64,000 nucleotides of DNA from an uncultured Acidobacteriota bacterium (GTDB lineage Bacteria > Acidobacteriota > Thermoanaerobaculia > UBA5066 > Gp7-AA6): contig CAWJKC010000003.1 of assembly GCA_963843325.1 (NCBI GenBank), positions 591,320-655,319 of the forward strand, written 5' to 3'. The position numbers and the translations under genes are program-made. Shown piece by piece: positions 9,102 through 28,746 of the stretch. Under the pieces are notes generated by a model that saw only the letters and a list, made by a program, of their open reading frames with translations, searched no databases and was not told where the DNA came from. Positions within the stretch are counted from its first letter, which is position 1, and the number at the start of each line of letters is the position of its first letter.

Positions 9102-9806
9102 ATGTTCATCGGGCACTACGGCGTCTCCCTCGCGGCAAAGCGCTACGACCCGCGCATCCCACTCGGCGTGCTGTTCCTCGCCGTGCAGCTGCTCGACGTC
9201 CTGTTCGCGATCTTCGTGCTCTTCGGGATCGAGAAGCTGAAGATCGTCCCCGGATTTACGGCGTACAACCCGTACGACCTGTACTGGATGCCGTACTCGC
9301 ACAGCCTGGTCGGCGCGCTCGGATGGTCGCTGGTCGCCGCCGTCGTCTGCCTGCTCGCCGCTCGGCGCCTGCCGCGCGGCGCGCGCGCCGGGGCCGCGGC
9401 CGTCGTCGGCGCGGCGGTCTTCTCGCACTTCCTGCTCGACGTCCCCATGCACACGCCCGACCTGCCGATCTCCCTCGGCGCGGGCTCACCGAAGATCGGC
9501 TTCGGCCTCTGGAACCACCGCGGCGCGGCCCTCGCCGCGGAGCTCGTCGCCCTGGGAATCGGTGGCGTTCTCTACCTGCGCGCCACCCGGCCGAAGAGCC
9601 GCGGCTTCGCGCGCGCGACCGCCGCTTTCGGCGTCGCGCTGGTCCTCACGACGCTGGCGACGCCCTTCATGCCCGACCCGTCGAGCGCCCGGGCCTTCGC
9701 AATCCAGGCACTGGCGCTCTACGTCGTCCTTGCCGTCCTCGCCGGCCTCGTCGACCGCGGAAGGACCCATCCGTCGCCTCCGCGTCGTGGGGAATCTGCG
9801 CCCTGA
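9102..9806 (+). CDS. Membrane-bound metal-dependent hydrolase
   Basis: MFIGH..., YSHSL, SHFLLD...H motifs; multiple TM segments. Confidence 0.75.
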   Translation: MFIGHYGVSLAAKRYDPRIPLGVLFLAVQLLDVLFAIFVLFGIEKLKIVPGFTAYNPYDLYWMPYSHSLVGALGWSLVAAVVCLLAARRLPRGARAGAAAVVGAAVFSHFLLDVPMHTPDLPISLGAGSPKIGFGLWNHRGAALAAELVALGIGGVLYLRATRPKSRGFARATAAFGVALVLTTLATPFMPDPSSARAFAIQALALYVVLAVLAGLVDRGRTHPSPPRRGESAP

Positions 9807-9839
9807 CGTCGCTTCCGCTCGCTGCGCTCGCTCCGCGGC
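9807..9839 (-). repeat. Short copy of the CGTC-ended structured repeat
   Basis: Reverse complement GCCGCGGAGCGAGCGCAGCGAGCGGAAGCGACG matches the 3' part of the 11742-11834 copy. Confidence 0.6.
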
Positions 9840-9880
9840 TAAGTCAGCGTGTGGGCTCGAGAAGCAGTATCCTGACTCCC

Positions 9881-10117
9881 GTGGAAGGTCTTGACCTCGA
9901 CGGACTGCTGTCCGGCTTCTCGATCTGGACGATTGTTCTCGCCCTCGTTTTCAGCCTCGTCGGCTGGATCGCCTTTCGCAACGGGAGAAAGAACCACGAG
10001 CCCAAGCCGATCTTCATCGGCATCGCCCTGATGGCCTACGGCTACTTCGTGACCAACGCCTGGGTCTCTCTCGCGATCGGGTCCGTGCTCACGCTCGCGC
10101 TCTTCTTCCCACGCTGA
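9881..10117 (+). CDS. Small membrane protein (78 aa)
   Basis: GTG start 7 nt after TATCCT; hydrophobic; FSLVGWIAFRNGRK...GIALMAYGYFV. Confidence 0.7.
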   Translation: MEGLDLDGLLSGFSIWTIVLALVFSLVGWIAFRNGRKNHEPKPIFIGIALMAYGYFVTNAWVSLAIGSVLTLALFFPR

Positions 10118-10143
10118 CGATCGACTTCGAGGAGGTTGTCCGC

Positions 10144-11649
10144 ATGAACCGACGTGAGCTCCTCCACGGCGCGGCCGCGAGCGCCGCGACACTGGCGTGG
10201 CCCGCGCGCGCGTCCGGCGCTTCGTCGCCGCTCGATCCCGTGCTCGCCCAGGTCGAGAAGCAACACGCCGAATCGGTCAAGCGCCTCCAGGACTGGATCC
10301 GCCTGCCTTCGATCGCCGCCGAGAACCGCGGCGTCGGCGAAGGCTGCGATTTCCTGATCGCGATGCTCAAGGAGGCGGGATTCGGCCGAGCGGAGCGGGT
10401 TCCGACGGAAGGATCACCGGGCGTCTTCGCCACGCTCGACGCCGGCGCGCCGCGCACGGTCGGCGTGTACTTCATGTACGACGTCAAACAGGTCGACCCG
10501 GCCGAGTGGTCCTCGCCTCCCTTCGACGCCGCGATCGTGGAGAAAGCCGGATTCGGAAAGGTGGTCATCGGCCGCGGCGCGGTCAACCAGAAGGGACCCG
10601 AGGCCGCGTTCCTCGCGGCGCTGCACGCCTTCCGCGCCGCCGGCCGGAAGCTGCCGGTCAACCTCGTGCTCGTCGCCGAGGGCGAGGAGGAGATCGGGTC
10701 GCCGCACTTCCCGCAGATCGTGCGGCGACCGGACGTCCAGGCCGCGCTCGCGAAGTGCACGGGCGTCTTCATGCCCACGGCGGCGCAGGGCTCCGACGGC
10801 ACCGTCACCGTCTCGCTCGGCGCCAAGGGCGTGATCGAGCTCGAGCTGACGTCCTCCGGCGAGCTCTGGGGCCGCGGGCCGAAGAAGGACATCCACTCGA
10901 GCAACAAGGCGCGCGTGGACAGCCCGGCCTGGCACCTGGTGACGGGCTTGTCGACACTCGTCTCGGCCGACGGGAACACCCCCGCGATCGAGGGCTTCGC
11001 CGACCGCGCCCGTCCGATCTCCGCGGCCGAGAAGGCCATGGTCGCCGACGCCGCGAAGCGGATGAACGAGGCCACGCTCAAGCAGCAGCTCGGCGTCGAG
11101 CACTGGATCGGCGACGAGGATTTCGTGACGTCGCTCGAACGCTTCGTCTCGCAGCCCACGGTCAACATCGAGGGTCTCGTCGGCGGATACACGGGGCCGG
11201 GCGGCAAGACGATCCTTCCGCACAAGGCCGTGGCGAAGCTCGACCTGCGGCTGGTGCCCGACATGACCGCGGCCGACGCGCTCGAGGCGCTGAAGAAGCA
11301 CCTCGCGAAGAAAGGCTACGGAGACATCGAGGTGAAGATGACCGGCGGCTACGACCCGACGAGCACGTCCGCCGACACCGGTCTGATCCGCGCGGAGTTC
11401 ACCGTGTATCGCGGCTTCGGCATCGAACCGATCCTCTGGCCGCGCAACGCGGGCTCGTGGCCGGGGTACGTGTTCACGGGCGCTCCGCTGAAACTGCCCG
11501 CCGGCCACTTCGGGCTCGGCCACGGCTCCGGCGCGCACGCACCCGACGAGTACTACGTCATCGAATCCACAAACCCGGCGATCCAGGGCTTCGACGGAGC
11601 GACGCGGTCGTACGTTCAGTACCTCGCCGCGCTCGCGTCGGCCGTCTGA
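10144..11649 (+). CDS. M20/M25/M40 family metallopeptidase, Tat-exported
   Basis: NRRELL twin-arginine signal; GRGA.NQKG, EGEEEIGS, AHAPDE. Confidence 0.9.
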   Translation: MNRRELLHGAAASAATLAWPARASGASSPLDPVLAQVEKQHAESVKRLQDWIRLPSIAAENRGVGEGCDFLIAMLKEAGFGRAERVPTEGSPGVFATLDAGAPRTVGVYFMYDVKQVDPAEWSSPPFDAAIVEKAGFGKVVIGRGAVNQKGPEAAFLAALHAFRAAGRKLPVNLVLVAEGEEEIGSPHFPQIVRRPDVQAALAKCTGVFMPTAAQGSDGTVTVSLGAKGVIELELTSSGELWGRGPKKDIHSSNKARVDSPAWHLVTGLSTLVSADGNTPAIEGFADRARPISAAEKAMVADAAKRMNEATLKQQLGVEHWIGDEDFVTSLERFVSQPTVNIEGLVGGYTGPGGKTILPHKAVAKLDLRLVPDMTAADALEALKKHLAKKGYGDIEVKMTGGYDPTSTSADTGLIRAEFTVYRGFGIEPILWPRNAGSWPGYVFTGAPLKLPAGHFGLGHGSGAHAPDEYYVIESTNPAIQGFDGATRSYVQYLAALASAV

Positions 11650-11741
11650 ACGCGCGAATAAACAATCGCGGCCGCGTTGCCGAGGAACCGCCCCGTCGCC
11701 CCCAGTGAAGAGGAGGCTATTCGGCCGGTACGGCTCATCTG

Positions 11742-11834
11742 CCCGCGGCGTGAATAGTCTCCCGACCGAAGGGAGGGAGGAGGTTCACGCCGCGGGAGCG
11801 TGAGCGAGCGAGGAACGAGCGAGCGGAAGCGACG
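11742..11834 (+). repeat. Structured dispersed repeat, copy A
   Basis: 13-bp stem CCCGCGGCGTGAA/TTCACGCCGCGGG around TAGTCTCCCGACCGAAGGGAGGGAGGAGG, then a GAGC-rich tail ending GCGACG. Confidence 0.8.
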
Positions 11835-11905
11835 GAAACCCGCGGCACGCGCGCCCGTATGTGAACGCGGGCGTCGCCGCGCCTCGCGGTCGCCGGGAGG
11901 TTCGC

Positions 11906-13066
11906 ATGACTCGTTCGCGTCGCATCGAACGCTTCGTCCTTCGTTCCGCGGCTTTCGTCCTGCTCGTGTCCTCGGCGGGCCGCGCCTTCGGCGCGCAGGG
12001 ACTCACGTTTCCGCCCAACGGCGACAACCCGCAGGCTTCGGTCATGCAGGCGATCGGGCCGGTGCGGGTCACCATCGACTATTCGAGCCCGCGCGTCGTG
12101 CGCGGCGACAACGACCGGCGCGGCAAGATCTGGGGCGAGCTCGTGCCGTGGGGCCTGTCCGACCTCGGCCTGAACGAGTGCAAGAGCTGTCCCTGGCGCG
12201 CCGGGGCGAACGAGAACACGACCTTCACGATCACGCACGACGTCCGCATCGAGGGCCAGCCCCTGCCCGCCGGAACCTACGGGCTCCACATGATCCCCGG
12301 CCAGGACGCCTGGACGATCATCTTCTCGAAGGACGCGAGCTCGTGGGGCAGCTACTGGTACGACCCGAAGAACGACGCGCTGCGCGTGCAGACGAAAGCC
12401 GCGAAGAGCGATTACCACGAGTGGCTCACCTACGAGTTCACCGAGCGCGATCCGGCCAAGGCGACGGCCGTCCTGAAGTGGGAAGAGCTGCAGGTACCCT
12501 TCCACATCTCCGTCGACGACGTGAACGCGCTCTGGGTCGCCGACATCCGCCGCGACCTGCGGCAGTGGTCCGGCTTCTCGTGGCAGAACTGGCAGCAGGC
12601 CGCCGACTTCTGCGCCCAGAACAAGATCAATCTCCCCGAGGCGCTGGTCTGGTCCGAGCGCTCGGTCTCGGATCCCTACGTCGGCGGCGAGGAGAACTTC
12701 CTCACCCTCTCGACCCTCTCGAAGCTCCAGGAGCTGAACGGGAAGCCGCAGGACGCGGCGAAGACACTCGATCGCGCGCTGAACAATCCGACCGCCACCG
12801 CGATCCAGATCCACGTCGTCGGCCGCCAGATGATGGCCGCCGGCAAGAAGGATGAGGCGCTGAAGATCTTCATCCTGAACGCGAAGAAGCATCCCGACCA
12901 GTGGCCCGTCCACGTCGGGCTGATGCGCGGTTATGCGTCCGTGGGCGACAAGAAGAAGGCGCTCGCCGAGGCGAAGCTCGCCCTGGCCCAGGCGCCGGAT
13001 CCCGGAAACAAGAAGAACCTCGAGGGGATCATCACGAAGCTCGAGGCGGGCCAGGACATCAACTGA
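11906..13066 (+). CDS. DUF2911 domain protein with C-terminal TPR-like helices
   Basis: IDYSSPRV...IWGELVPWG...WRAGANENTT; GGAGG RBS; signal peptide. Confidence 0.85.
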   Translation: MTRSRRIERFVLRSAAFVLLVSSAGRAFGAQGLTFPPNGDNPQASVMQAIGPVRVTIDYSSPRVVRGDNDRRGKIWGELVPWGLSDLGLNECKSCPWRAGANENTTFTITHDVRIEGQPLPAGTYGLHMIPGQDAWTIIFSKDASSWGSYWYDPKNDALRVQTKAAKSDYHEWLTYEFTERDPAKATAVLKWEELQVPFHISVDDVNALWVADIRRDLRQWSGFSWQNWQQAADFCAQNKINLPEALVWSERSVSDPYVGGEENFLTLSTLSKLQELNGKPQDAAKTLDRALNNPTATAIQIHVVGRQMMAAGKKDEALKIFILNAKKHPDQWPVHVGLMRGYASVGDKKKALAEAKLALAQAPDPGNKKNLEGIITKLEAGQDIN

Positions 13067-13087
13067 TCGGAGCGACCGGATGTCTCG

Positions 13088-13111
13088 CCCCCTCTCCCGC
13101 CGGGAGAGGGG
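13088..13111. repeat. CCCTCTCCC/GGGAGAGGG hairpin repeat
   Basis: CCCCTCTCCC GCC GGGAGAGGGG; related copies at 19067, 34116 and 62269. Confidence 0.7.
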
Positions 13112-13123
13112 GTAACGCGCGGA

Positions 13124-13293
13124 GCTGCGACTAGCGCTCGCGGCGCAAATAGTCTCCCGACCGAAGGGAGGGAGGAGGTTTGCGCCGCGGGAGCCGCAGC
13201 GGAGCGGAGAGGCCAGGCGAACGGTCGAGCCCTCAGGCGAGCCGTTCGCCGGTGCGCCGAAGGCGCAGGCCTCGGAGCGAAGCGCAGGCGACG
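13124..13293 (+). repeat. Structured dispersed repeat, copy B (long form)
   Basis: Same core as copy A with a compensated stem, plus a three-way junction; ends GCGACG next to the stop of 13294-13941. Confidence 0.8.
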
Positions 13294-13941
13294 TCAGAGC
13301 ATCCCGACCGCGCGCGAAGCGAGGATCGCGATGATCGAGAGCGAGATGAGCGACTGCAGCATGCACAACCCCTTCGCCCAGCGCGAGAGGATGGCCGTGT
13401 CCGTCGGCGAGAAGGCCGTGCTCGTGTTGAACGCGAGGAACAGGTAGTCGACGAAGCGCGGCATCCAGGTCTCGGGGTGCTCGATCGGCACGCCGTCCAT
13501 CATCTGGGGAAAGAAGAAGGCGCCCGCCGTGTGGGCGCCCCGCTTCTCCCGCGCGTGCGGGCCGCCGGCGTCCAGGCGCCAGTACCAGATCGCGAAGACC
13601 AGGACGTTCGTCGCCCACAGCATCGCCGCGGAGCCGAGCAGCGATCCGGGTGACTCGGTCTTCGACGGCAGGCGAACGATCAACAGCGTCAGGGATCCGG
13701 CGAGCGCCAGGGTGATGATCGTGCTGATGGCATAGCCGAAGAGCGTGTCGATCCGGTGATTGCCGGCACGATGCGCGAGCGTCGCCGGAACGAGCATCAC
13801 GAGGACGAGGGCAAGCAGAAGCCAGCGCGGACCCACCACCAGCGTGTGCGGCAGCGAGAACGAGATCAGCCCGACGCCGACGAGCGCGACGAGGACCGGC
13901 CAGCGGCCCTCGGGGTTGGAGATCGGGCTCTTGCCTGCCAT
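13294..13941 (-). CDS. DUF1345 family membrane protein
   Basis: YWRLDAGGP, FFFPQM, W.PRFVDYLFLAFNTSTAFSPTD motifs. Confidence 0.8.
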   Translation of the reverse strand: MAGKSPISNPEGRWPVLVALVGVGLISFSLPHTLVVGPRWLLLALVLVMLVPATLAHRAGNHRIDTLFGYAISTIITLALAGSLTLLIVRLPSKTESPGSLLGSAAMLWATNVLVFAIWYWRLDAGGPHAREKRGAHTAGAFFFPQMMDGVPIEHPETWMPRFVDYLFLAFNTSTAFSPTDTAILSRWAKGLCMLQSLISLSIIAILASRAVGML

Positions 13942-13978
13942 CGGCGTCAGAGACTAGCAGGCCGCCGCGCCGCCCGGC

Positions 13979-15814
13979 CTACCAGGCGACCCCGTAGTCG
14001 TCGCCGTAGTCGCTCGAGCCGCCCCACATCGTGCCGTGCTCGCGGTCGAAGTAGATCGCGTTGATCGGCCCCGACGTCTTCGCCGCCGTGCGGATCCGGT
14101 AGCCCATCTTCTTCAGCTCGTCGCGCACGTACGGCGGCGTCGACGTCGTTGATCTCGATCAGGCCCGGCTTCGACTCGTGCGCGCCGAAGGAGCTGCGCA
14201 TCTGGTAGCTGTTGATGTTCGGGGCCTCGACGGCCTCCTGGACGTCCATGCCGAATTCGACGAAGTTCAGGAAGAACTGGAGCAGGTTCTGGTCCTGCGT
14301 GTCGCCGCCCTGGACGGCGAAGGCGAGGAACGGCTTGCCGTCCTTGAGCGCCATCGAGGGCGTGAGCGTCACGCGCGGGCGCTTGCCGGGCTCGAGGACG
14401 TTGTAACGGATTCTCGGCCGGATCGAGCACGAAGCTCTGCATGCGCTGGCTCATGCCGATGCCCGTCTTTCCCGCGATGCAGACGGGATTCCAGCCGCCC
14501 GACGGCGTCACCGAGACGACCCAGCCCTCCTCGTCCGCCGCTTCGATCGACGTCGTGCCCGCGAGAAAGCCCTCCTCGAAGGAGCGCGCCTCGCTCACCT
14601 TCGGGACGGGCGCGTCGCTCTTCCACCGCCCGAGGTATTCCAGGTACGGGTTCTTCCCGTTCTGGAACGGGTACGGATCGCCGGGCTTCGCGTTCGCGTC
14701 GTTCTTCGTCCAGTCGATCCCCTTGCGGCGCGCCTCCGCGTAGTCCTTGGACAGCAGCCCGAGGCGCGGCTCGGCGCGGCGGACGATCGGGATCGCCGTA
14801 GTAGAAGTCGCGGTCGGCGAACGCGAGGTTCATGACCTGGTAGAGCGCGTGGATGTAGCGCGCGCTGTTGTAGCCCATGCCCTTCAGGTCCATCGGCTCG
14901 AGGAGGTTGAGCGCCTCGAGCATGGCGGGGCCCTGCGTCCACACGTCGAGCTTGTAGACGGCGATGTCCTTGTAGTTCGTCGAGACGGGCTCCTCGAAGC
15001 GCGGGCGCCACTTCGCGAGGTCTTCCATCGTCGCGAGGCCGCCCTGCTCCTTCGAGCCGCGCACGAACTCCTGCGCGATGTCGCCCTTGTAGAACCGGTC
15101 GTAGGCCGCGTAGATCGCCTCCTTGCGGCCCATGCCGGCGGCGCGCGCGCTCTGCTCGGCGTCGACGAGCTTCTGGAGCGTCGCGAGCAGGTCCGGCTGG
15201 CGGAACATCTCGCCCGGGCGCGGCGCCTCGCGCGCCTCGCCCGGGTGCGTCAGGAAGAGCTTCGCCGAGTACGGCCACTGCCGGATCTGCTTCTTCTCGC
15301 GCTCGAGGCCGTCGGCCAGCTCCTGCTCGATCGGGTAGCCCTCGGCCAGCTGCATCGCGGGCGCGAGGACGTCCTTGAGCGACAGCTTCCCGTACTCCGC
15401 CAGCATCATCATCAGGCCGCCCGGCGTCCCCGGCGTCACCGCCGCGAGCGGTCCGTATTCGGGCGGATACGCCATGCCGCGCCCGTGGAAGAACTCCGGC
15501 GTCGCGCCCGTCGGCGCCACGCCGAGCGCGTTGACCGCGATGACCTTGCCGGTCTTCGGGTTGAAGATCAGCGCCTGCGTCTCGCCGCCCCAGGAGAGCG
15601 TGTCGAACATCGTCGTCGTCGCCGCGAGCATCGCGCACGCCGCGTCGACGGCGTTGCCGCCCTTCTGAAAGATCATGGACCCGGCCGTCGCCGCGAGCGG
15701 CTTGCCGGTGATCGCGACCCAGTGCTTGCCGTGGAGGACCGGCTTGTTGGAGGCGCAGAGCGGCGGCACGAAGGCGAGCAGCGCGGCCAGGGCTTTCCAC
15801 ACGTGCTTTTTCAT
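13979..15814 (-). CDS. ggt: Gamma-glutamyltransferase family protein (apparent frameshifts near 14765, 14405 and 14145)
   Basis: GGNAVDAA, AFADRDFYYGDP, catalytic GTTSI, TLTPSM, QGGDTQDQ and ...DYGVAW* spread over several frames. Confidence 0.85.
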
Positions 15815-15873
15815 GACGGGAACGATACAGCGATTGCCCCGAGGTCTCTATAATCCGGTGTCCCGAGAGCCCG

Positions 15874-16293
15874 ATGCTGACCGTCACCGCCACGATCGCC
15901 GTCCCCGAGCAAGCGCTCAGCGAGCGGTTCGTGCGCGCCTCCGGTCCCGGCGGCCAGAACGTCAACAAGGTCGCGACGGCCGTCGAGCTGCGCCTGGACG
16001 TCTCCGCCTCCACGCTGCCCGAGGACGTGAAGGCGAGGCTCGTCGCGCTCGCGGGCAAGCGGATCTCCGCCGACGGCGTCCTGCTGATCGACAGCCGCGC
16101 GTTCCGGACGCAGGCCCAGAACCGCGCCGCCGCACGCGAACGGCTCGTCGAGCTCATCGCCCGGGCCGCGCACCGGCCCAGGACCCGCCGCAAGACCCGC
16201 CCGAGCCGGGCCGCGAAGGAGCGGCGCATCGAGGCCAAGGTGCAGCGCTCGCACGTGAAGGCCCGTCGCGGACGCGTCCGGGGCGAAGACTAG
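15874..16293 (+). CDS. arfB: Alternative ribosome rescue peptidyl-tRNA hydrolase ArfB
   Basis: RASGPGGQNVNKVATAV GGQ motif; basic C-terminal tail. Confidence 0.95.
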   Translation: MLTVTATIAVPEQALSERFVRASGPGGQNVNKVATAVELRLDVSASTLPEDVKARLVALAGKRISADGVLLIDSRAFRTQAQNRAAARERLVELIARAAHRPRTRRKTRPSRAAKERRIEAKVQRSHVKARRGRVRGED

Positions 16294-16299
16294 GAACCG

Positions 16300-18465
16300 A
16301 TGCTCGCCGCGGTGCTGTTCGCTCTGGCCACCGGCGATGCGATCACGCTGGCGCCCGCGCCCGGTGCCGCGCCCGCCGCGACGATCGTGCTCGGCGGGCA
16401 CGAAGTCCCGCTCGACAAGGACGGCCGCGCCAGCATCCCGCCCGACGTCATGCTCGCGGCTCCCGGGCTGCGCTTCTACCAGCCCGTGGACGACGGTCCG
16501 GTCTTCTACTTCCCGAGCGACGACACGCTCGTCCTCTGGCCGCTGTCCGGTCCCGAGCGCGCTGTCCGCGCCGAGGTCGTCGTCAAGGCCGCCGACGCGA
16601 CGACCTGGGAGCACGCCCCCGCCTTCGAGGCGCCCGTGGAAGTGCGCAACGGCAAGGCCGGGGTGCGCTTCGTCGTCTCCGCGGGGGAATGGGACGCCGC
16701 GATCCTCGTGCCCGGGTTCGCGCCCGCCTTTTCGCGCGTCGCGGCGGGCGCACCGACCTTCACGAACGCCGCCTCGGCGTTGAAGCGCGGGGCCCGCGTA
16801 AAGGCGCGGATCCTGAGCGCTCGCACGGACAAGCCGCCCGAGCGCTGGCTCGCCCGGGCGTCGCGCACCGACCCGGCGCCCGACGACCAGGAGGCCCGGT
16901 TCTTCAAGACGCGGCCGATCGCGGCCGACCGCGCGGCGCTCGATTTTGCGAGCCTTCCCGTCGGAGCCTGGGAGCTGCGCGTCGAAGTTCCCAGCGGCGG
17001 CCGGAAGCGCCAGCCCTTCACCGCCCTGAAGCCGGGCGGCGTCACGGACCTCGGCGACTTCGTCATCCCGGACCTCGGGTCGGTCCGGCTGACCGTCGAG
17101 TTTCCGGTCGAACTGCCGAAAGGTGAGCTCACGGTGCGCGTCAAGGGAGTCTCCAACACGACGCACGCGATGGACGTCGAGCTCGGCTCGAAGACGATCC
17201 GCCCGAAGGACGTCTCGGTCGTCGAGATCGGCCAGATCGAGCCCGGCTTCGTCGAGGTCGGATTCGAGGCTGCGGCAAGCGGGCTTCGCCATGTGGAGGT
17301 CCGTCGAGGTCAAACCCGGCGAGACCGCCGAAGCCCGCTTCACCTTCGTCCCGGTCAGAGTCCGCGGAGTCGTCAAGCGCGGCGATGAAGTCGTTCCCCT
17401 TGCCGTGGTGAGCTCGCCGCTCGGGGGACGGCTTCAAGCCGCGTCCACGTCCTCGAACGACCTCGGCGAGTATGCGCTCCGGCTGTGGGCCACCGCCGAC
17501 CGGATCCCGCTGAGGACGTTGTCGCCCGGCGACGAGACGCACTTCGTGGAGGACGTCCCGATCGATCCGCGCGCCACCGAGGTGGAGCACGACGTCGTTC
17601 TGCCGCTGGCCGAGATTCGGGGCACCGTGCGCGACGCGGAAGTGGGGACACCCCTCGCCGGAGCAGAAGTCGCCGTCTCCACGTCGCCCGACAAGGGGGA
17701 ATCCAGGGGCGAGCTCTATGCCCATGCGTCCGTGACGTCCGACCGCGAAGGCCGGTTCCGCCTGCGCAACCTGGTCTCCCGCCGCGTCGACGTGCACGTC
17801 CAGCACGAGGGCTACGCCCCGGCCGACTTCTACGAGATCGAGGTGACCCCCGACGGGAAGGATCTCGACGTGCGCATGGAGAAAGGCGTCCGGCTCCACG
17901 GAGTCGTCACCGACGAGACGGGCGCCCCGCTGGCCGGCGTGAACGTGGGGATGGATCCCGACGCGCGCGGCCTCGACTTCGCCCGGGAGGTCATGACGTC
18001 GGGCGCCGGCGAGTTCGAGTTTCCCGGCACCGCAACGGGCTTTCACATCCTGGAGGTCATGGTGTGCGGCCACAGGATCGCGGTGCGGCCCACGGACGTT
18101 TATTTCTTCGGGGAGTTCATCGAGGGCAAGGAGATACGGGGCGGAGACGAGGCCAACATCCAGTTGGGGCCCCCAACCGACGTGGTGCGCGTGCACGTCG
18201 AGGACGACACCGGCGCGCCGCTCGATGGCTGGACCCTGCAGTGGACCGTCCACGGCGTCCTGCTTCCGCTCGGGGCCTGGCAGCAATACGCCACGAACTG
18301 CGGCCAGCGCGGTCGCGACCGACGGCGAAGGCAATCTCGAGTCTGCACGGCATGCCGAGGGACACGATCGGCGCAGTCGCGCCCGGGTCGACGCAGCCTT
18401 TCGGCACCTTCAACAACGACGGCACCCGGACCTCGTGGACGATCGTCATTCCAAAGGAGCAATGA
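16300..18465 (+). CDS. Secreted protein with carboxypeptidase-regulatory-like (prealbumin-fold) repeats; frameshifts near 17300 and 18310
   Basis: Repeated IRGTVRD..G.PLAGA.V...TSD.EGRF and GVVTDETGAPLAGV units across consecutive ORFs. Confidence 0.7.
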
Positions 18466-19134
18466 ACATGGGCAGGAAGGACCCCCGCGTCGACGCCTAC
18501 ATCGCCAGATCCGCCCCGTTCGCCCGGCCGATCCTCAAGCGCCTGCGCAAGCTCGTGCACCAGGGCTGCCCGCCCGTCGTCGAGCAGATCAAGTGGGGCA
18601 TGCCCCACTTCGACTACGACGGCATGTTCTGCGGAATGGCCGCGTTCAAGGAGCACTGCACGTTCGGCTTCTGGAACCGGGCGATGAACCTGAAGAAGAA
18701 CGAGGACGCGATGGGCCAGTTCGGGTGCATCACGAAGGTCGCGGACCTGCCTTCGGACACCGTGATCGTCGGCTACGTCCGACAGGCGAAAAAGCTCGCG
18801 GACGACGGCGTCAGGATCGGGCCCGTCCGCAAGGCGAAGAAGCCGCTGCCGGTGCCGGCATCGCTGACGGCCGCGCTCGAAGAAGAAGGCCGGCGCCGCG
18901 GCGCGATTCGCGAAGATGAGCCCGAGCCAGAAGCGCGAATACTCCGAGTGGATCGTCGAGGCGAAGACCGACGCCACGCGCGACAAGCGCCTCGGTATCG
19001 CCGTCGGCTGGATCGCCGAAGGCAAGTCGCGCAACTGGAAGTACCAGGCGCAAGGCGAAGGCGTAGCCCCCCTCACCCCAACCCTCTCCCCCCTCACGGG
19101 TGGAGAGGGAGACGGCTCGTCGAGCGAGCTGTGA
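18462..19134 (+). CDS. YdeI/OmpD-associated family protein (DUF1801 + OmdA); frameshift near 18880
   Basis: DPRVDAYI...FARPIL...IKWGMPHF and SPSQKREYSEWIVEAKTDATRDKRL...GKSRNWKY. Confidence 0.85.
19067..19109. repeat. CCCTCACCC-CCCTCTCCC hairpin repeat inside the 3' end of the YdeI-like CDS
   Basis: CCCCCTCACCCCAACCCTCTCCCCCCTCACGGGTGGAGAGGG, translated as PLTPTLSPLTGGEG. Confidence 0.75.
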
Positions 19135-19290
19135 CTCAGCTCGCGGCGCGAAAGTCTCCCGACGAAGCGAGGAGGAGGTCGCGCCGCGGGAGCCGCAGCG
19201 TCCGGGGATCAGGCGTCGGTCGAGCCCGCACCGGGCGAGCCGGACGCCGGTCGCCGTCAGGGCGCAGATCCCTGCGTCGCGGAGGCGACG
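19128..19290 (+). repeat. Structured dispersed repeat, copy C (long form)
   Basis: Collinear with copy B, with compensatory changes in several stems; ends GCGACG 1 nt from the DinB stop. Confidence 0.8.
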
Positions 19291-19291
19291 T

Positions 19292-19777
19292 TTATCCGTT
19301 TTCGTCCGCCGAAGGTCCGTAGATGGCCGGCACCTTCGCGCCCATCGGCCGCAGGTAACTCGACAGCTGCCCGCGGTGGTGGATCGCGTCGAACAGGAAG
19401 CCGTAGAGCATGTCTCCGACCGGCGCCTCCCACACGACGTTGCCGTCCATCAGGAACTGTGCGTTCTTCTCCCAGGCCGCATCGTCCAGCTTCGCGAGGC
19501 GCTTCTCGAGCTCGCCCGCGTTCTTCTCGAACGCGGCAACCGCGTTTTCGATCTTCGCCGGGGCCGGCTTCAGGGAAAAATTGACCTTCCCGTTGTCGAC
19601 GATCTCGCAGGCGTCGCCCCACTCGCTGGCCACGAGCCACACGATGTCGCCGGCGGTGCTGCACTTGTCGTGCGGGCGGTACGACTTCTTGTCGTCGGGC
19701 ACGGCTTGCAGCACCTTCACGAACCGGGGCTTTTCGGACTTGAAGCTGTCGACGAAGAATTCACGCGCATTTTTCAT
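19292..19777 (-). CDS. DinB family protein
   Basis: C-terminal HHRGQLSSYLRPMGAKVPAIYGPS. Confidence 0.9.
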   Translation of the reverse strand: MKNAREFFVDSFKSEKPRFVKVLQAVPDDKKSYRPHDKCSTAGDIVWLVASEWGDACEIVDNGKVNFSLKPAPAKIENAVAAFEKNAGELEKRLAKLDDAAWEKNAQFLMDGNVVWEAPVGDMLYGFLFDAIHHRGQLSSYLRPMGAKVPAIYGPSADENG

Positions 19778-22738: not shown

Positions 22739-25347
22739 ACCGGCGCCGCCGCGAGCGGGAACTGGACGAGGAGATCGCCGCGCATCTGGCCATGGCCGTG
22801 GCCGATCGCGTCGCCCGCGGACAGAGCCCGAAGGAAGCCGAGGCCGCCGCGCGGCGCGAGCTCGGCAACGAGGCGATCGTCAAGGAGACGACCCGCGCCC
22901 AGTGGGGCCGAGGATCCTTCGAGCGGCTCGCGCAGGATGTGCGCTACGGCCTGCGCCTGCTGCGGCGCTCGCCCGGATTCGCGGCGGTTGCCATCGTCAC
23001 GCTCGCGCTCGGCATCGGCGCCAACACCGCGATCCTCTCGGTCGTGGACGCGATCCTCCTTCGCCCGCTCCCCTACGCCGACCCCTCGCGCCTCGTCGTG
23101 CTCCTCCACGACGGCCGCAATCCCGTCGCGCCGGCGAACTACCTCGACTGGAAGAAGAGCGCAGCCGCTCCTTCGAGAGCATGGGCGCCGCGGAAAACTG
23201 GTCGGCGAATCTGACCGGCGGCGGCACGCCGGAGAAAGTCCCGGCCCTGCGCATGACGCCGGAGATCCTTCCGATGCTCGGCGTCGCGGCCTGCGCTCGG
23301 GCGCTTCTTTCTGCCTTCGGAGGCAACGGCGGGCCAGGACCACGTGGTTCTGCTCGGCGACGGTCTCTGGCGGCGGCGGTTCGGCGCGGACCCGAACGTC
23401 GTCGGCACGTCCGTGCAGCTGAACGGCCAGCCGTACGCCGTCGTCGGCGTCATGCCTCCGGGGTTCCTGTTCGCTCCCTTCTGGACCGCGGAGTCCGAGA
23501 TGTGGGCACCGCTCGACCTCCAGGCGCGCGCCGCCAGCCGCGATGGCTCGAGCCTGCGCATCTTCGGCCGCCGGAGAAAAGACGTCTCGCTCTCCGCGGC
23601 CCGCGCCGAGATCGCCGCGATCACAGCCGCGCTGGAACGGGATTTCCCCGGCACGAACCGGCGGGTGACGGTCACGCCCCTCCACGAGAAGGTCGTCGGC
23701 AACGTCCGGCCCGCGTTGCTGGTGTTGCTCGGCGCCGTCGGGCTCGTCCTTCTCATCGCCTGCGCGAACGTCGCGAACATGCTGCTCGCGCGCTCCTCCG
23801 CGCGCCAGCGCGAGATCGCTTTGCGCGCCGCGCTCGGCGCCGGCCGCGGCCGGACGATCCGGCAGCTGCTGACCGAGTCGCTCGTCCTCGCGGCGCTCGG
23901 AGGCGTGGCCGGCGCCGCGCTCGGCGCCTGGTCCCTCAAGGCCCTCGTCGCGCTCGCGCCCGCGTCGATCCCGCGCCTGACCGACGTGCACCTCGACGGG
24001 CGCGTCCTGTTCGCGACTTTCGCGGCGTCGCTCGCGACCGGAATCGTCTTCGGCCTCGCACCCGCGCTCCAGGCGTCGAGCGTGCACCTCCAGGACGCGC
24101 TCAAGGAGGGCGGCGCGGCCGGCGCAGGTCGCGAGGGCGGACGCGTGCGCCGCGTGTTCGTCGCCGCCGAGGTCGCGATCGCCCTGGTGCTCCTGGTGGG
24201 CGCCGGCCTGATGACACGCAGCTTCCTCGCCCTCCAGGCGATCGACCCGGGTTTCGATCCGCGCGGCGTCATCACGTTCGAGGTCTCCGTCGCCGGCACG
24301 CGGCAGGCGGAGCCCGGACGCCGCCCCATCCTCTACCGGCAGATCCTGGAGCGGATCGCGGCGCTGCCCGGCGTCCGCTCGGCCGGCGCCATCAACCACA
24401 TCCCCATCGCAGGCGACATCTGGGGCTTCCCCTATCGGATCGAAGGCCGGCCCAAACCTGGACCCGGCGAATCGCCGGTGGCGACCTACCGTGCCGTGAT
24501 GCCCGGCTACTTCGCCTCGATGCGCCTGCCCATCCTGCGCGGCCGCGATGTGTCGGCGATGGACACGGCCGACGCGCCGGGCGTGGTCCTCGTGAGCGAC
24601 TACCTGGCCCGGAATGCGTGGCCCGGCGAAGACCCGATCGGCAAGCGCATCTCCCTCGACGGGACGGACGACGACCCGAAGTGGGTGACGGTGATCGGCG
24701 TCGTGAAGGACACGGTTCGCTCCGCGTGGAACAATCCTCCGGAGGACGAGGTGTATCTGTCGGTCCTCCAGCGCCCCGGGCTGGTCGGGTCGCAGGAGAC
24801 TCAGGCGGCATACCTCACCTTCGTCGCCCGCGCCGACGGCGATCCCGCGGCGCTGGCACCCTCGCTGCGCGCTGCCGTCTGGGGGCTCGACCCGACGCTG
24901 CCCATCTCGCAGGTCCTCACGATGGAGCAGATCGTCGCGAGCGCGAACGCGCGGGCGCGCTTCCAGATGCTCCTGCTCGCGGCGTTCGCGGTCGCGGCAG
25001 CCCTGCTCGCCGCCGTCGGCATCTACGGCGTCATGAGCTACGCCGTCGCCCGGCGCACGCGCGAGATCGGTCTGCGCATGGCCCTCGGGGCGAAACCGCG
25101 GGACGTCCTGCGCCTGGTCGTCGGACAGGGCATGACGGTCGCGCTGGCCGGCGCCGGGGTCGGGATCGCCGCGGCCCTGCTGCTGACGCGGCTGATGTCG
25201 AGCGTTCTCTATGGCGTGCGTCCCACGGACCCGGTGACGTACGCGGGCGTGGCCCTGCTTCTGCTGGCGATCGCGTTGCTCGCCAGCTACCTGCCGGCGC
25301 GCCGCGCGGCGCACATCGACCCGGGCAAGGCGCTGCGCGCGGAGTAG
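22735..25347 (+). CDS. ADOP-type duplicated ABC permease (MacB/FtsX) with N-terminal prefix domain; frameshifts near 23160-23320
   Basis: [10 protein letters not shown]...ARRELGN prefix, [37 protein letters not shown]; ATGA overlap with PadR. Confidence 0.9.
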
Positions 25348-26321: not shown

Positions 26322-28746
26322 ATGGCAGAGCTCTGGCAGGACATTCGGTACGGACTTCGGGTCCTGGCCAAGAGCCCCGGCTTCACGGCCGCCGCGGTCG
26401 TCGTCCTCGCGCTCGGCATCGGGGCGAACACGGCGATCTTCAGCGTCGTCAACGCCGTCCTGCTCAAGTCCGCTCCCCTTCCGCGACGCCGACCGCATCG
26501 TCTCGGTCCCCCACGTGCCCCCGCAGGACATCTTCCCGGGCATGAAGACCTTCTCGGTCTCGCCCGCGAACTACTACGACTGGAAGGCGCCAGAACGACG
26601 TGTTCGAGCGGATGTCCATCTATACGGACGGCTCGGTCATCCTCACGGGATCGGGCCGGCCCGAGTCGCTGGCCGCCGGTTTCGTCTCGAGCGAGTTCTT
26701 CGCGGTCCTCGGCGTCCAGCCGCTGCTCGGCCGCCTGTTCGCCGAGGGCGACGACGAGCCCGGGCGCAACGTGGCCGTCCTTTCGGAGGAGCTGTGGAAG
26801 ATCGCGTTTTGGCGGCAGTCCGTCCGCCGTGGGTACCGCGATCGTCGTCAACGGCGAGAGCTCCACGATCGTCGGCGTCGTCCCGAAGGGGCTGGCCTAT
26901 CCCGCGGGCACGCAGATCTGGGTACCCCTCGTCTTCACGCCGGAAGTGCGCGCCCTGCGCGGCATCCACGACTTCCTGGTCCTCGCGCGCCTGAAGAAGG
27001 GGACGACGCTCGCGGGCGCGCGCGCCGCAGATGAACGCGATCTCCGCGCGGCTCGAGGCGACGTACCCGAAGGACGACAAGGGCTGGGGCGCCGCGGTCA
27101 TCCCGCTGCACGAAGACCTCGTCGGAGACGTGCGTCCGGCGCTGCTCGTGCTGCTCGGCGCCGTCGGGTGCGTGCTGCTCATCGCCTGCGCCAACGTGGC
27201 CAACCTCGTCCTCGCGCGGACGCTCGGGCGCCGCAAGGAGATCGCCGTGCGCGCGGCCCTGGGCGCCAGCCGCGCGCGGATCGTCCGCCAGCTCTTCGCC
27301 GAGACCACCATCCTCGCGCTCGCCGGCGGCATCCTCGGGATCGCTGTCGCCGTGGCCGGCGTCGGACTGCTCCTCTCGTCGTTTCTCGGTGAGCACATGC
27401 CGCGGGCTTCCGAGATCCGCGTCGACGCGCCGGTGCTCGCCTTCACGTTCGGGATCGCGCTCGTCACGGGGATACTCGCCGGGATGATCCCGGCCTGGCG
27501 CCTGACGCGCGAGGACCCGAACGAGGCGCTCAAGCAGGGCGGCCGCGCGGACGCCGACGCGGGCAGTCCGATCGCCCGCAGCGCGCTCGTCGTCGCGGAA
27601 GTCGCGCTGGCGCTCGTGCTGCTCATCGGCGCGGGCCTTCTCGTGCGCAGCCTCGGACGCCTGCGGGGCGTGAACCCGGGCTTCGACCCGCGCCACGTCC
27701 TGAGCGCCTACGTCTCGCTGCCCGACGGAAAGTACGCGACGCCCGAAGCGCGCAAGGCGTTCTTCGAGCGGGCGCTCGAGCGCGTCCGGGCGCTGCCCGG
27801 CGTCGAGTCCGCGGGCATGATGAACACCATTCCCCTGACCGACGGCGGATCCACCCAGCCGATCGCGGTCGAGGGACGCCCGGCCGCGAGCCTCGCCGAG
27901 CAGCCGGAGGTCGCCGTGCGCGTGCTCGCGCCGGGGACGCTGAAGACGCTTGGCATCCGCCTCGTGCGCGGGCGCGACTTCGCCGGCGCGGACGACGGCC
28001 GTGCGCCAGCCGCGATCCTCGTGAGCGAGGCCCTGGCCCGGCGGTTCTGGCCCGGCGAAGACGCCGTCGGCAAGCGCCTCACGCTGACGTTCTACCCGGG
28101 CGTCGTGCGCGAGGTCGTCGGCGTCGTCGGCGACGTGAAGCTGCGCGGCCTCGCGCAGACGCAGCCCCTCGACGCGCTCTACGCCCCGTACGCGCAGATG
28201 CCCCGCGGCACCATGTCGCTGCTCGTCCGCACGGCGCAGGACCCGCGCAGCGTGGCCGGGGCGCTCGAAGCCGCCGTGCACGCGATCGACCCGGAGCAGC
28301 CCGTCGAGGACGTCAAGACGATGGAGGAGCAGCTCGGCGCCTCGCTCGCGCACGCGCGCTTCAACATGATGCTGCTCGCCGTGTTCGCCGGCCTGGCGCT
28401 GCTGCTCTCGGCCGTCGGCATCTACAGCGTGCTGTCCTACAACGTCCGCCGGCGCACGCGCGAGATCGGCATCCGGATGGCGCTCGGCGCCGACGGACAG
28501 AACGTCGTGCGGCTCATCGTGCTCGACGGCATGCGCCCGGCCCTCATCGGCCTGGCGATCGGCCTCGCGGCCTCGCTCGCCCTCGGCCGCGCGCTCGAGA
28601 GCCTCGTCTTCGGCATCCGCGCGACCGATCCGCTCACGTTCGCGGCCGTCACCGCGCTGCTGGGGCTCGTCGCCCTGACGGCCTGCGCCCTGCCCGCGTG
28701 GCGCGCGTCGCGCGTCGAGCCCACGGCCGCGCTGCAGGAGGGGTAG
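26322..28746 (+). CDS. ADOP-type duplicated ABC permease without prefix domain; several frameshifts at 26470-27030
   Basis: [52 protein letters not shown]; GGAGG RBS. Confidence 0.9.

Follow-up and report, generated by a model that had tools for sequence, protein, structure and literature searches.

The genome of an uncultured soil bacterium of the class Thermoanaerobaculia (Acidobacteriota) contains a family of large, folded repeats that lie between genes. The family is described here from a stretch of 64,000 nt, hereafter the window (contig C3, positions 591320-655319, of assembly G000, a genome of 4.52 Mb in 16 contigs, with 69% G+C and 73% complete), in which the three main copies span 11739-11835 (copy A), 13134-13293 (copy B) and 19137-19290 (copy C). 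The helices of this element are maintained by compensatory change and its structure is under selection; moreover, it has multiplied within the chromosomes of two related Thermoanaerobaculia families. It is best read as a new element, far more elaborate than a repetitive extragenic palindrome (REP) of 20-40 bp, and is not placed in any described family. With a probability of about 0.55, it is a lineage-specific extragenic repeat similar to REPs and bacterial interspersed mosaic elements (BIMEs), larger and more structured than the classical ones, which acts now or acted formerly as a non-autonomous mobile element.

The unit measures 95-190 nt and consists of a variable 5' arm of about 13-50 nt, a constant hairpin (P1), a second folded rod (D2) and a 3' GACG(G) that is left unpaired in the folds. 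Read on the other strand, this end is a 5' CGTC tag adjoining a stem. Hairpin P1 has a 13-bp outer stem, in which six pairs covary, followed by a 3x3 loop (UAG/AGG) and by an inner part formed by an invariant 6-bp helix (UCUCCC/GGGAGG), GA/GA, CC/GG and a G-N-A triloop. The inner hairpin (30 nt) is almost invariant, and it is the 13-bp stem closing it that covaries. D2 starts directly after P1 and is built from helices of 2-3 bp (GCC:GGC or GC:GC) alternating with purine-purine loops of the GNA/GNA and GA/GA types. Its base is conserved and its tip exchangeable, since the tip may be lacking, or consist of a three-way junction or of a further hairpin. In long-class copies, the basal rod leads through a covarying closing stem to a three-way junction with the helices P3 and P4; P3 shows up to four pair types per position, an invariant U bulge, a C:G pair, a tandem GA and a free tip, and P4 is UGCGCC/GGCGCA. 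The short class has the same basal rod and ends in a purine loop (30 copies; 25 pairs, eight of them compensatory). Finally, in the class called T3, the junction is replaced by another hairpin.

The evidence for selection on this structure comes from an alignment (A2) of 84 long copies, two from the window and 82 from other genomes. RNAalifold predicted 42 pairs in it, 19 of them with compensatory changes. The structure submitted to controls comprises 49 pairs in seven helices, namely the RNAalifold pairs, P4 and one extra basal pair; 96.7% of its cells are paired, and 24 of the 49 pairs have changed on both sides, in a total of 293 cells. When the partners were slid by 1-3 columns, only 38-50% of the cells were paired, and none of 500 shuffles reached any of the five structure measures used. 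An earlier reading of the window made from its sequence only, without database searches (hereafter the sequence-only reading), had proposed that structure and not sequence is under selection, a claim to be checked with a covariance model of genome-wide copies; such copies have now been collected, and the covariation lies far above that of the shuffles. The 3' end is equally well defined, and GCGACG is invariant, as had been claimed, in 84/84 long and 30/30 short aligned copies. The 5' arm, on the other hand, has neither consensus sequence nor consensus pairing in the same 84 long or 30 short copies, and a pairing of this arm with the tail or the linker was rejected because no consensus pairs were found in them.

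Within the window, the 11-nt core AGTCTCCCGAC is exact at 11756, 13151 and 19153, and the three main copies named earlier are all in place; allowing one mismatch, it has eight matches against 2.5 expected, a number reached by none of 100 shuffles. The covariance model R1, which was built from an alignment (A3) of 77 copies and models hairpin P1 only, recovers exactly three copies, all on the plus strand, at 11739-11802, 13134-13197 and 19137-19196. Copy A belongs to the short class. Its variable 5' arm (11693-11741, plus strand), without family-conserved pairing, starts with CCGTCGC, which is complementary to the 3' end, a property of copy A only among the window copies; in predicted folds, 11693-11699 is paired with the 3' end. 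Its P1 (11742-11796, plus strand; R1 match of 90.5 bits, together with the pair counts) shows the 13-bp covarying outer stem, the UAG/AGG loop, the 6-bp TCTCCC/GGGAGG helix, GA/GA, CC/GG and a GAA triloop. Its D2 (11797-11835, plus strand, with GCGACG at 11829-11834) is the basal GA-rich rod without a distal tip, followed by the unpaired GACG(G); its pairs in the short-copy alignment are 110:147, 111:146, 116:140 and 117:139. Copy B is of the long class, with P1 at 13137-13191 (plus strand, 89 bits) and D2 at 13192-13293 (plus strand, GCGACG at 13288-13293). This D2 consists of the basal rod, the closing stem GAGGCC/GGCCTC and the three-way junction, where P3 carries the U bulge and a CGAG/CGAG tandem GA, and P4 is TGCGCC/GGCGCA with a GAA triloop. 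Copy B is followed, at a distance of 0 nt, by the stop codon (TCA on the plus strand) of a minus-strand gene (13294-13941). Copy C has its P1 at 19140-19190 (plus strand, 57 bits, with the variant inner loop TCTCCCGACGAAGCGAGGAGG) and a long D2 at 19191-19290 (plus strand), with the closing stem GGGATC/GATCCC and GCGACG at 19285-19290; 1 nt further lies the stop (TTA, 19292-19294) of a minus-strand gene (19292-19777). The compensatory P1 stems noted earlier (GCGTGAA/TTCACGC, GCGCAAA/TTTGCGC and GCGCGA/TCGCGC in A, B and C) and the differing closing stems of B and C are real and generalize to the 84 long copies, and the conserved TCGAG...CGAG internal loop, the tandem GA loops and the GNA triloops are likewise present. 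A further short copy had been announced at 9807; an element is present there, but it is a tail-only fragment on the minus strand (9807-9839) and not a short full copy. It holds the 3' part of the P1 arm and a short D2, aligns to the tail of copy A, and begins 0 nt past the TGA (9804-9806) of a plus-strand gene (9102-9806).

The two strands of the element are not equivalent. The purine-rich strand is the more stable in 108/108 copies, with a mean fold energy in long copies of -105.6 kcal/mol against -94.1 kcal/mol for the other strand under RNA parameters, and an advantage in the same direction under DNA parameters. G-rich strands tend to fold better anyway, so this difference alone argues only weakly for a folding strand. 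More telling are the hairpin tips, as C-GNA-G triloops occupy 74/77 P1 tips, in which only N varies, and 40/73 P4 tips. The internal loops are all purine-purine on the purine-rich strand and pyrimidine-pyrimidine on the opposite one. Tandem sheared G-A pairs, like GNA triloops with a closing C:G pair, are known as very stable motifs, especially in DNA mini-hairpins such as d(GCGAAGC). Three T:G positions are also fixed on the purine-rich strand. Strand-specific folding, as proposed by the sequence-only reading, is in agreement with these data. Its argument from wobbles, GA pairs and triloops confined to one strand stands for the triloops, the GA loops and the three fixed T:G positions, but not for the sporadic mismatches in the remaining helices, where G:T (31) and A:C (28) show no asymmetry; the wobble part of the argument is therefore weaker than had been claimed.

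The family is restricted in its distribution and very uneven in its copy number. In G000, a motif search gave 52 copies, of which 24 belong to the long class of B and C, 19 to the short class of A and nine to class T3, and R1 gave 59 matches at E values up to 0.01 (51 of them at 79 bits or more). BLAST with copy B found the element in 24/24 genomes of the same genus, 5/7 of a sister family and 1/9 of another family. A class survey with R1 covered a sample of 121 genomes, two of which (G060 and G030) are flagged as unpublished. Matches were present in 14/14 genomes of the own family (f1, six genera) and 3/3 of a sister family (f3), or 13/13 and 2/2 without the unpublished genomes, and absent from the 103 genomes formed by family f2 (0/12) and 13 other families (0/91). 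Per genome, R1 counts 2-4 matches in G047, G019 and G091 (each 95-97% complete) and at least 43, a lower bound, in G006, G060, G080 and G110, a difference of at least 10- to 20-fold among congeners. In the comparison of the copy B locus, seven congeners gave only 2-4 matches in all, mostly to flanking genes where listed, and hence have hardly any copies of the long type, or none. When one genome per species was scanned for the exact core, at least 112 stretches were detected, and the 80 matches listed all carry titles of Acidobacteriota or Thermoanaerobaculia metagenome-assembled genomes, while no match to the element was found in plasmids, phages or IMG/VR viral contigs. The element had not been recognized as a named family, and this agrees with Rfam, which gave no match at gathering thresholds over the 64-kb window and no relevant match at E values up to 10 over 9500-19600. 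A literature search found no paper on such repeats in Thermoanaerobaculia, and nothing on the element in work on REPINs and REP-associated tyrosine transposases (RAYTs), MITEs (miniature inverted-repeat transposable elements), or RNA motifs and covariation in Acidobacteria. The sequencing runs that hold window sequence all do so at small shares (up to 0.28), and therefore permit no claim about habitat or strain.

The placement of the copies relative to genes was analyzed in a pool of 157 copies with a defined 3' end, 51 from G000 and 106 from other loci. A convergent open reading frame (ORF), defined by at least 80 open codons, a third-position G+C content (GC3) of at least 0.75 and an end no more than 60 nt from GCGACG, was found in 75/157 copies. 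The stop codon lies at an offset of 0-2 nt from GCGACG in 56 of these (offset 0 in four, 1 in 37 and 2 in 15), at 3-5 nt in none and at 6-59 nt in 19. A further 24 copies have a stop triplet at 0-3 nt and failed the strict ORF test, and they are probable cases. The window fits this flush placement, with 0 nt for copy B, 1 nt for copy C and 0 nt, on the other strand, for the fragment at 9807. In addition, at least five copies abut the 3' ends of tRNA genes, and five have a -10-like hexamer there. The 56 adjacent stops are TAA in 27 cases, TAG in 17 and TGA in 12, a strong excess of TAA, which ends only 9% of the genes of G000 (247/2727). Two crude GC3-based gene callers covered 72-73% of this genome. 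Positions +2 to +4 past GCGACG hold 61-66% A+T, and the commonest 4-mers beside GCGACG in the 157 copies are GTTA (19), GCTA (13), GTCA (9) and TTTA (7), none of them dominant. Gene context could be tabulated for 64 clear copies, leaving out 82/157 unclear ones and 11 at locus edges: 25 lie between convergent genes, 32 between tandem and seven between divergent ones. The gene 3' end faces the GCGACG side in 49/64 and the gene start in 15/64, and the tandem pairs run with the reverse-complement strand in 24 cases and with the purine strand in eight, so that the purine-rich strand is mostly antisense to its neighbors. The element does not supply the stop codon, as the stop of the gene at the locus of copy B is at the same place with or without it.

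A separate observation concerns the 5' arm side, where in 21/153 copies an opposite-strand gene starts 5-70 nt from P1. These genes encode an N-terminus M(S/T)L..G(T/S)KLGPYEI that resembles Ser/Thr kinases by eye (examples are G000 C16:561444-561589 and C16:566869-567015, and loci L083, L056, L036 and L045), and CTCTCCC in the arm would then be the Shine-Dalgarno sequence of the kinase-like gene. This start motif occurs 276 times in G000, and its enrichment near the element is therefore modest.

Turnover of the copies is evident at orthologous loci, where empty sites had been suggested as a check and were indeed found. At the locus of copy B, G000, G049, G053, G009 and G043 have the element next to the same downstream gene, with a differing upstream neighbor; it is present as remnants in G017 and lacking in eight genomes (G045, G051, G011, G010, G020, G041, G022 and G008). 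For copy A, a DNA contig from sequencing run X2 covers 11535-11650 and 11836-12112, with 12-13 differing letters in each piece, and skips 11651-11835, where it has 16 other letters; this is an empty site with no visible target duplication, although those 16 letters differ there. The same contig also lacks the 28 nt CGCGCGAATAAACAATCGCGGCCGCGTT (11651-11678) right after the stop of gene 10144-11649, so the element is not the only difference between the filled and the empty allele. Several arrangements recall repeat elements, including tandem arrays of four units with a 13-nt spacer behind one gene, head-to-head pairs, solo tails and, in G043, a mosaic in which part of a long tail comes after a short copy. 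The T3 copies, characterized by the P1 stem CATCG/CGATG and the tail CCCGCAGCGATCGCGCAGCAGCGCGACGCGCGAAGGGCGACG, are clustered in one orientation, with four in 4 kb on contig C1 (342861-346846, L141) and five in 18 kb on C3 (318848-336900, L142) of G000. Their neighbors are unrelated, ordinary genes (deaminase, NHL, TonB-receptor, SDR, TPR and permease); of the T3 copies, the one at C3:329826 has a duplicated tail and the one at C3:334771 a replaced left arm.

The intergenic location flush with gene 3' ends, the dimers, the arrays, the swings in copy number and the filled and empty sites together favor a repeat element. According to the mechanism proposed for it, the element would be copied, in the form of a folded single strand, by a trans-acting enzyme, and would land next to A+T-rich sites, which in a genome of 69% G+C would mostly be stop codons, tRNA trailers and -10 boxes. 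It would then survive at gene 3' ends, where it is presumably harmless, and when transcribed from the adjacent gene it would probably also form a 3' hairpin serving as stabilizer or barrier, as proposed for REPs. The sequence-only reading had left the choice between a noncoding RNA and a non-autonomous element folding as single-stranded DNA (ssDNA); the elaborateness beyond a simple REP is upheld and the context favors a repeat element, but the nuclease sought nearby was not found.

Indeed, no HUH/RAYT or other nuclease examined (Y1, Y2, TnpB or IS110) flanks or tracks the element. This result opens a series of points that weigh against a mobile repeat. G000 and G020 (the latter 97% complete, with at least 28 copies) lack the Y1 transposase domain Y1_Tnp (PF01797), and no Y1 match was found in the high-copy genomes G020, G000, G009, G017 and G023, some of which are incomplete; the domain is present in 20/31 congeners, where four Y1 loci examined have no element within 1.5 kb. 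RAYT/Y1 was consequently rejected as the mover. Among three high-copy and two low-copy genomes, Y2_Tnp was found only in the low-copy G019, TnpB only in G020 and IS110 in G042 and G019, and G006, with at least 43 copies, has none of the three; as none tracks the copy number in these five genomes, Y2/IS91, TnpB and IS110 were also discarded. As to the replication strand, the purine strand is the strand of negative GC skew, that is, the leading-strand template, in 33/47 copies with clear local skew, opposite to the preference of IS200/IS605 elements; this count was made on contigs with clustered copies and is no clean test. No identical copies were seen within G000, the best pair being 93% identical, and recent transposition is therefore not demonstrated. 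The insertion boundaries and the absence of duplication rest on one clean empty site, whose contig is about 90-95% identical and has further differences close by. Finally, the loops are invariant and the stems covary across species whose genes are 72-86% identical, and at one orthologous site in three species (L066, L073 and L117) a change in the 5' arm has been compensated, all of which is as expected of a host-selected RNA or protein-binding site. Such conservation requires that selection continues, also in genomes in which no transposase is known. As a side observation, two of the three Y1 loci scanned for inverted repeats are flanked by unrelated repeats of their own, GGGGTCAGTC(C/T)TGA...; the loci L124 (G018:C2:1289082-1292417) and L126 (G008:C178:11604-14930) have frames of about 320-350 aa and several such copies. 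Their Y1 genes resemble the tyrosine transposases associated with terminal inverted repeats (TIRs) that are noted for Acidobacteria (PMC3733652).

The main rival is a host cis-acting structured RNA, a 3' untranslated or intergenic part of the neighboring gene, kept by selection locus by locus, which would serve as a platform for protein binding, as a barrier to exonucleases or as a signal for processing or termination, the family having arisen by duplication. This is a real possibility, clearly less probable than the repeat element. Invariant loops and junctions with covarying stems are what it predicts, as are the conservation at orthologous sites, the start of the element 0-2 nt after a stop codon, the gene 3' ends facing GCGACG (49/64) and the tandem pairs running with the reverse-complement strand (24 against eight); it also needs no transposase, and none was found, the structure being kept in genomes without a known one. 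However, it is usually the pyrimidine-rich strand that runs in the direction of the genes, and this strand folds worse in all 108 copies compared and has pyrimidine mismatches in place of the GNA triloops and GA-GA loops. In 15/64 copies it is a gene start that lies on the GCGACG side, and no terminator (a GC-rich hairpin with a T run, sought on either strand) and no sigma-70 pattern was detected at the three window copies. Moreover, 2-4 against at least 43 copies in congeners, and arrays of four units, are hard to square with a needed RNA. Some transcription may be reflected in the soil RNA library X19, the only RNA library that held words of the stretch, whose contigs join P1 to two kinds of tail belonging to other copies at a depth of 36-42; these contigs give neither strand nor ends nor level and DNA carry-over is possible, so they do not decide the question, and parts of the window that lack cover in X19 and X20 carry no weight.

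A related and somewhat more tentative idea is that of a functional folded device and not a passive repeat, in which the purine strand would form two conserved rods from GA-GA loops, GNA triloops and the invariant inner hairpin, and would be recognized by a type of protein that has so far no known connection with repeats. This protein could be either an ssDNA-mobilizing enzyme unrelated to Y1, Y2, TnpB and IS110, or a host factor that uses the structure at some 50-100 gene ends, where it might label 3' ends or shield them; the targeting of the protein would then be reflected in the preference for TAA.

The remaining alternatives fare much worse. It is improbable that the copies are genes for trans-acting small RNAs with their own promoters, transcribed from the purine strand and exposing a GGAGG that mimics the Shine-Dalgarno sequence. 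That strand does fold best and carries AGGAGGT in P1, and contigs of the RNA library contain the element, but the GGAGG stretch is base-paired in the structure model, the 5' arm shows no conserved promoter-like sequence or consensus in the 84 long and 30 short copies, and about 50 copies per genome lie flush with the stops of neighbors to which they are mostly antisense. Just as unlikely is a cut-and-paste MITE with TIRs, a target-site duplication and a DDE transposase. The idea comes from copy A, which ends in CCGTCGC...GCGACGG, and from copies in G043 and G053 that also begin with CGTCGC near an upstream stop codon; across the family, CGTCGC occurs within 90 nt upstream of P1 in 14/157 copies against 25/157 control windows, and a terminal inverted repeat CGTCGC...GCGACG was therefore rejected as a family trait. 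The 5' arm is not conserved, the sole empty site, where 16 letters differ, shows no visible duplication, and no longer, gene-carrying copy was met. Integron attC-like sites marking gene cassettes are the least credible explanation of all, for although the element directly follows stop codons, the T3 clusters keep one orientation and a few copies have, by eye, GTTRRRY-like flanks, the majority of copies stand singly, scattered next to housekeeping genes and tRNAs, most flanks are GATG and not GTT (mostly without GTT/AAC, by eye), the size and two-hairpin layout are unlike attC, and the 23 ORFs neighboring the T3 clusters, compared with Pfam, include only ordinary genes and no integrase domain (IntI was not searched genome-wide), on which ground the attC reading of these clusters was abandoned.

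Other repeats accompany the element. Immediately upstream of copies B and C (13088-13112 and 19082-19109 in the window), and of many short-class copies, there is a second repeat, which forms the GC-rich hairpin CCCTCTCC...GGAGAGGG and often has CCCTCACCCC in front of it; this repeat gives 132 pattern counts on both strands, or about 66 loci in G000, and at 19070-19133 an ORF reads through it, acquiring the tail ...GEGVAPLTPTLSPLTGGEG. The genome also has a canonical GTAG-tagged REP (GTAG + GGGCGGCC..GGCCGCCC; on the other strand ...GGCCGCCCCTAC), the GTAGGGGCGG of which occurs 122 times in G000; it is found upstream of long copies at L006, L012, L029, L041 and L053, and in G045 at the locus of copy B (L130). 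The lineage thus has at least three repeat families. Elsewhere in the window, the coding frame changes twice within 17370-19066, near 18400 and 18880-18920, and among the pieces are, by eye, one similar to YdhG/DUF1801 and one similar to the C-terminal part of YdeI; the cause may be frameshifts in the assembly or the presence of separate small genes. Another feature is a set of three paralogous stretches (families D1-D3) at 22972-23926, 26376-27352 and 34907-35954, which are 66-75% identical at spacings of about 3.4 and 8.6 kb and presumably represent duplicated FtsX/MacB-type permease genes, a guess; 41-nt repeats occur alongside them at 25053 and 28452.

The interest of the family lies in that most described REP-type repeats are short single palindromes, and the present one, from an uncultured soil lineage, is large and well resolved, its loops being invariant, its end sharp and its independent compensatory changes numbering dozens. 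So strong a signal makes it testable which protein reads such hairpins, and whether the hairpins act as DNA or RNA, and congeners with two against more than 40 copies offer a natural comparison for finding the partner gene. In a more practical sense, the covariance model marks about 50 intergenic sites per genome and accounts for spurious ORFs and for gene ends extending into the repeat.

Compared with known systems, the family resembles IS200/IS605-derived PATEs and IS91-type elements in its asymmetric ends, the sharp end beside a hairpin, the lack of general inverted repeats, and the single-strand folding; no duplication is visible at the sole empty site, where 16 letters differ. Those elements have a fixed tetra- or pentanucleotide target and depend on a Y1 or Y2 HUH enzyme. 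In the present family, the flank is variable and A+T-rich, the commonest 4-mer accounting for only 19/157 copies, and the enzymes are missing from high-copy genomes. REPINs, another point of comparison, are formed by two inverted REPs of 20-40 bp with a GTAG tag and flank a single-copy RAYT gene; the present unit is one asymmetric two-hairpin module without an associated Y1 gene. With the E. coli REP/BIME and Pseudomonas REPIN-RAYT systems, it shares modular palindromic mosaics at gene ends, persistence and evolution within a lineage and a maintained structure. Another likeness is to the CGTC-tagged REPs, which are reported from five other phyla as single stems of 8-9 bp with A/T in positions 1-2, loops of 4-5 nt and a CCA tail, and for which no dedicated transposase is known (PMC3733652). 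GTAG- and CGTC-tagged REPs mostly have both convergent ORFs ending less than 20 bp away, and form head-to-head dimers (PMC3733652). The present family likewise has an unpaired terminal CGTC (here GACG on the purine strand) adjoining a stem, G-T pairs in its stems, an extragenic position near ORF 3' ends, mostly of convergent or co-directional genes, head-to-head dimers and no known dedicated transposase gene, whereas it differs in its length of 95-190 nt, its two rods, the frequent three-way junction, the invariant inner hairpin, the GC-rich stems and the lack of a CCA tail. The family thus behaves like REPs in its populations and in its placement, and has the tag-and-hairpin layout of the CGTC-tagged ones; as its structure is unlike theirs and no RAYT accompanies it, it is regarded as a more elaborate form of this kind of repeat and is assigned to none of the families described.

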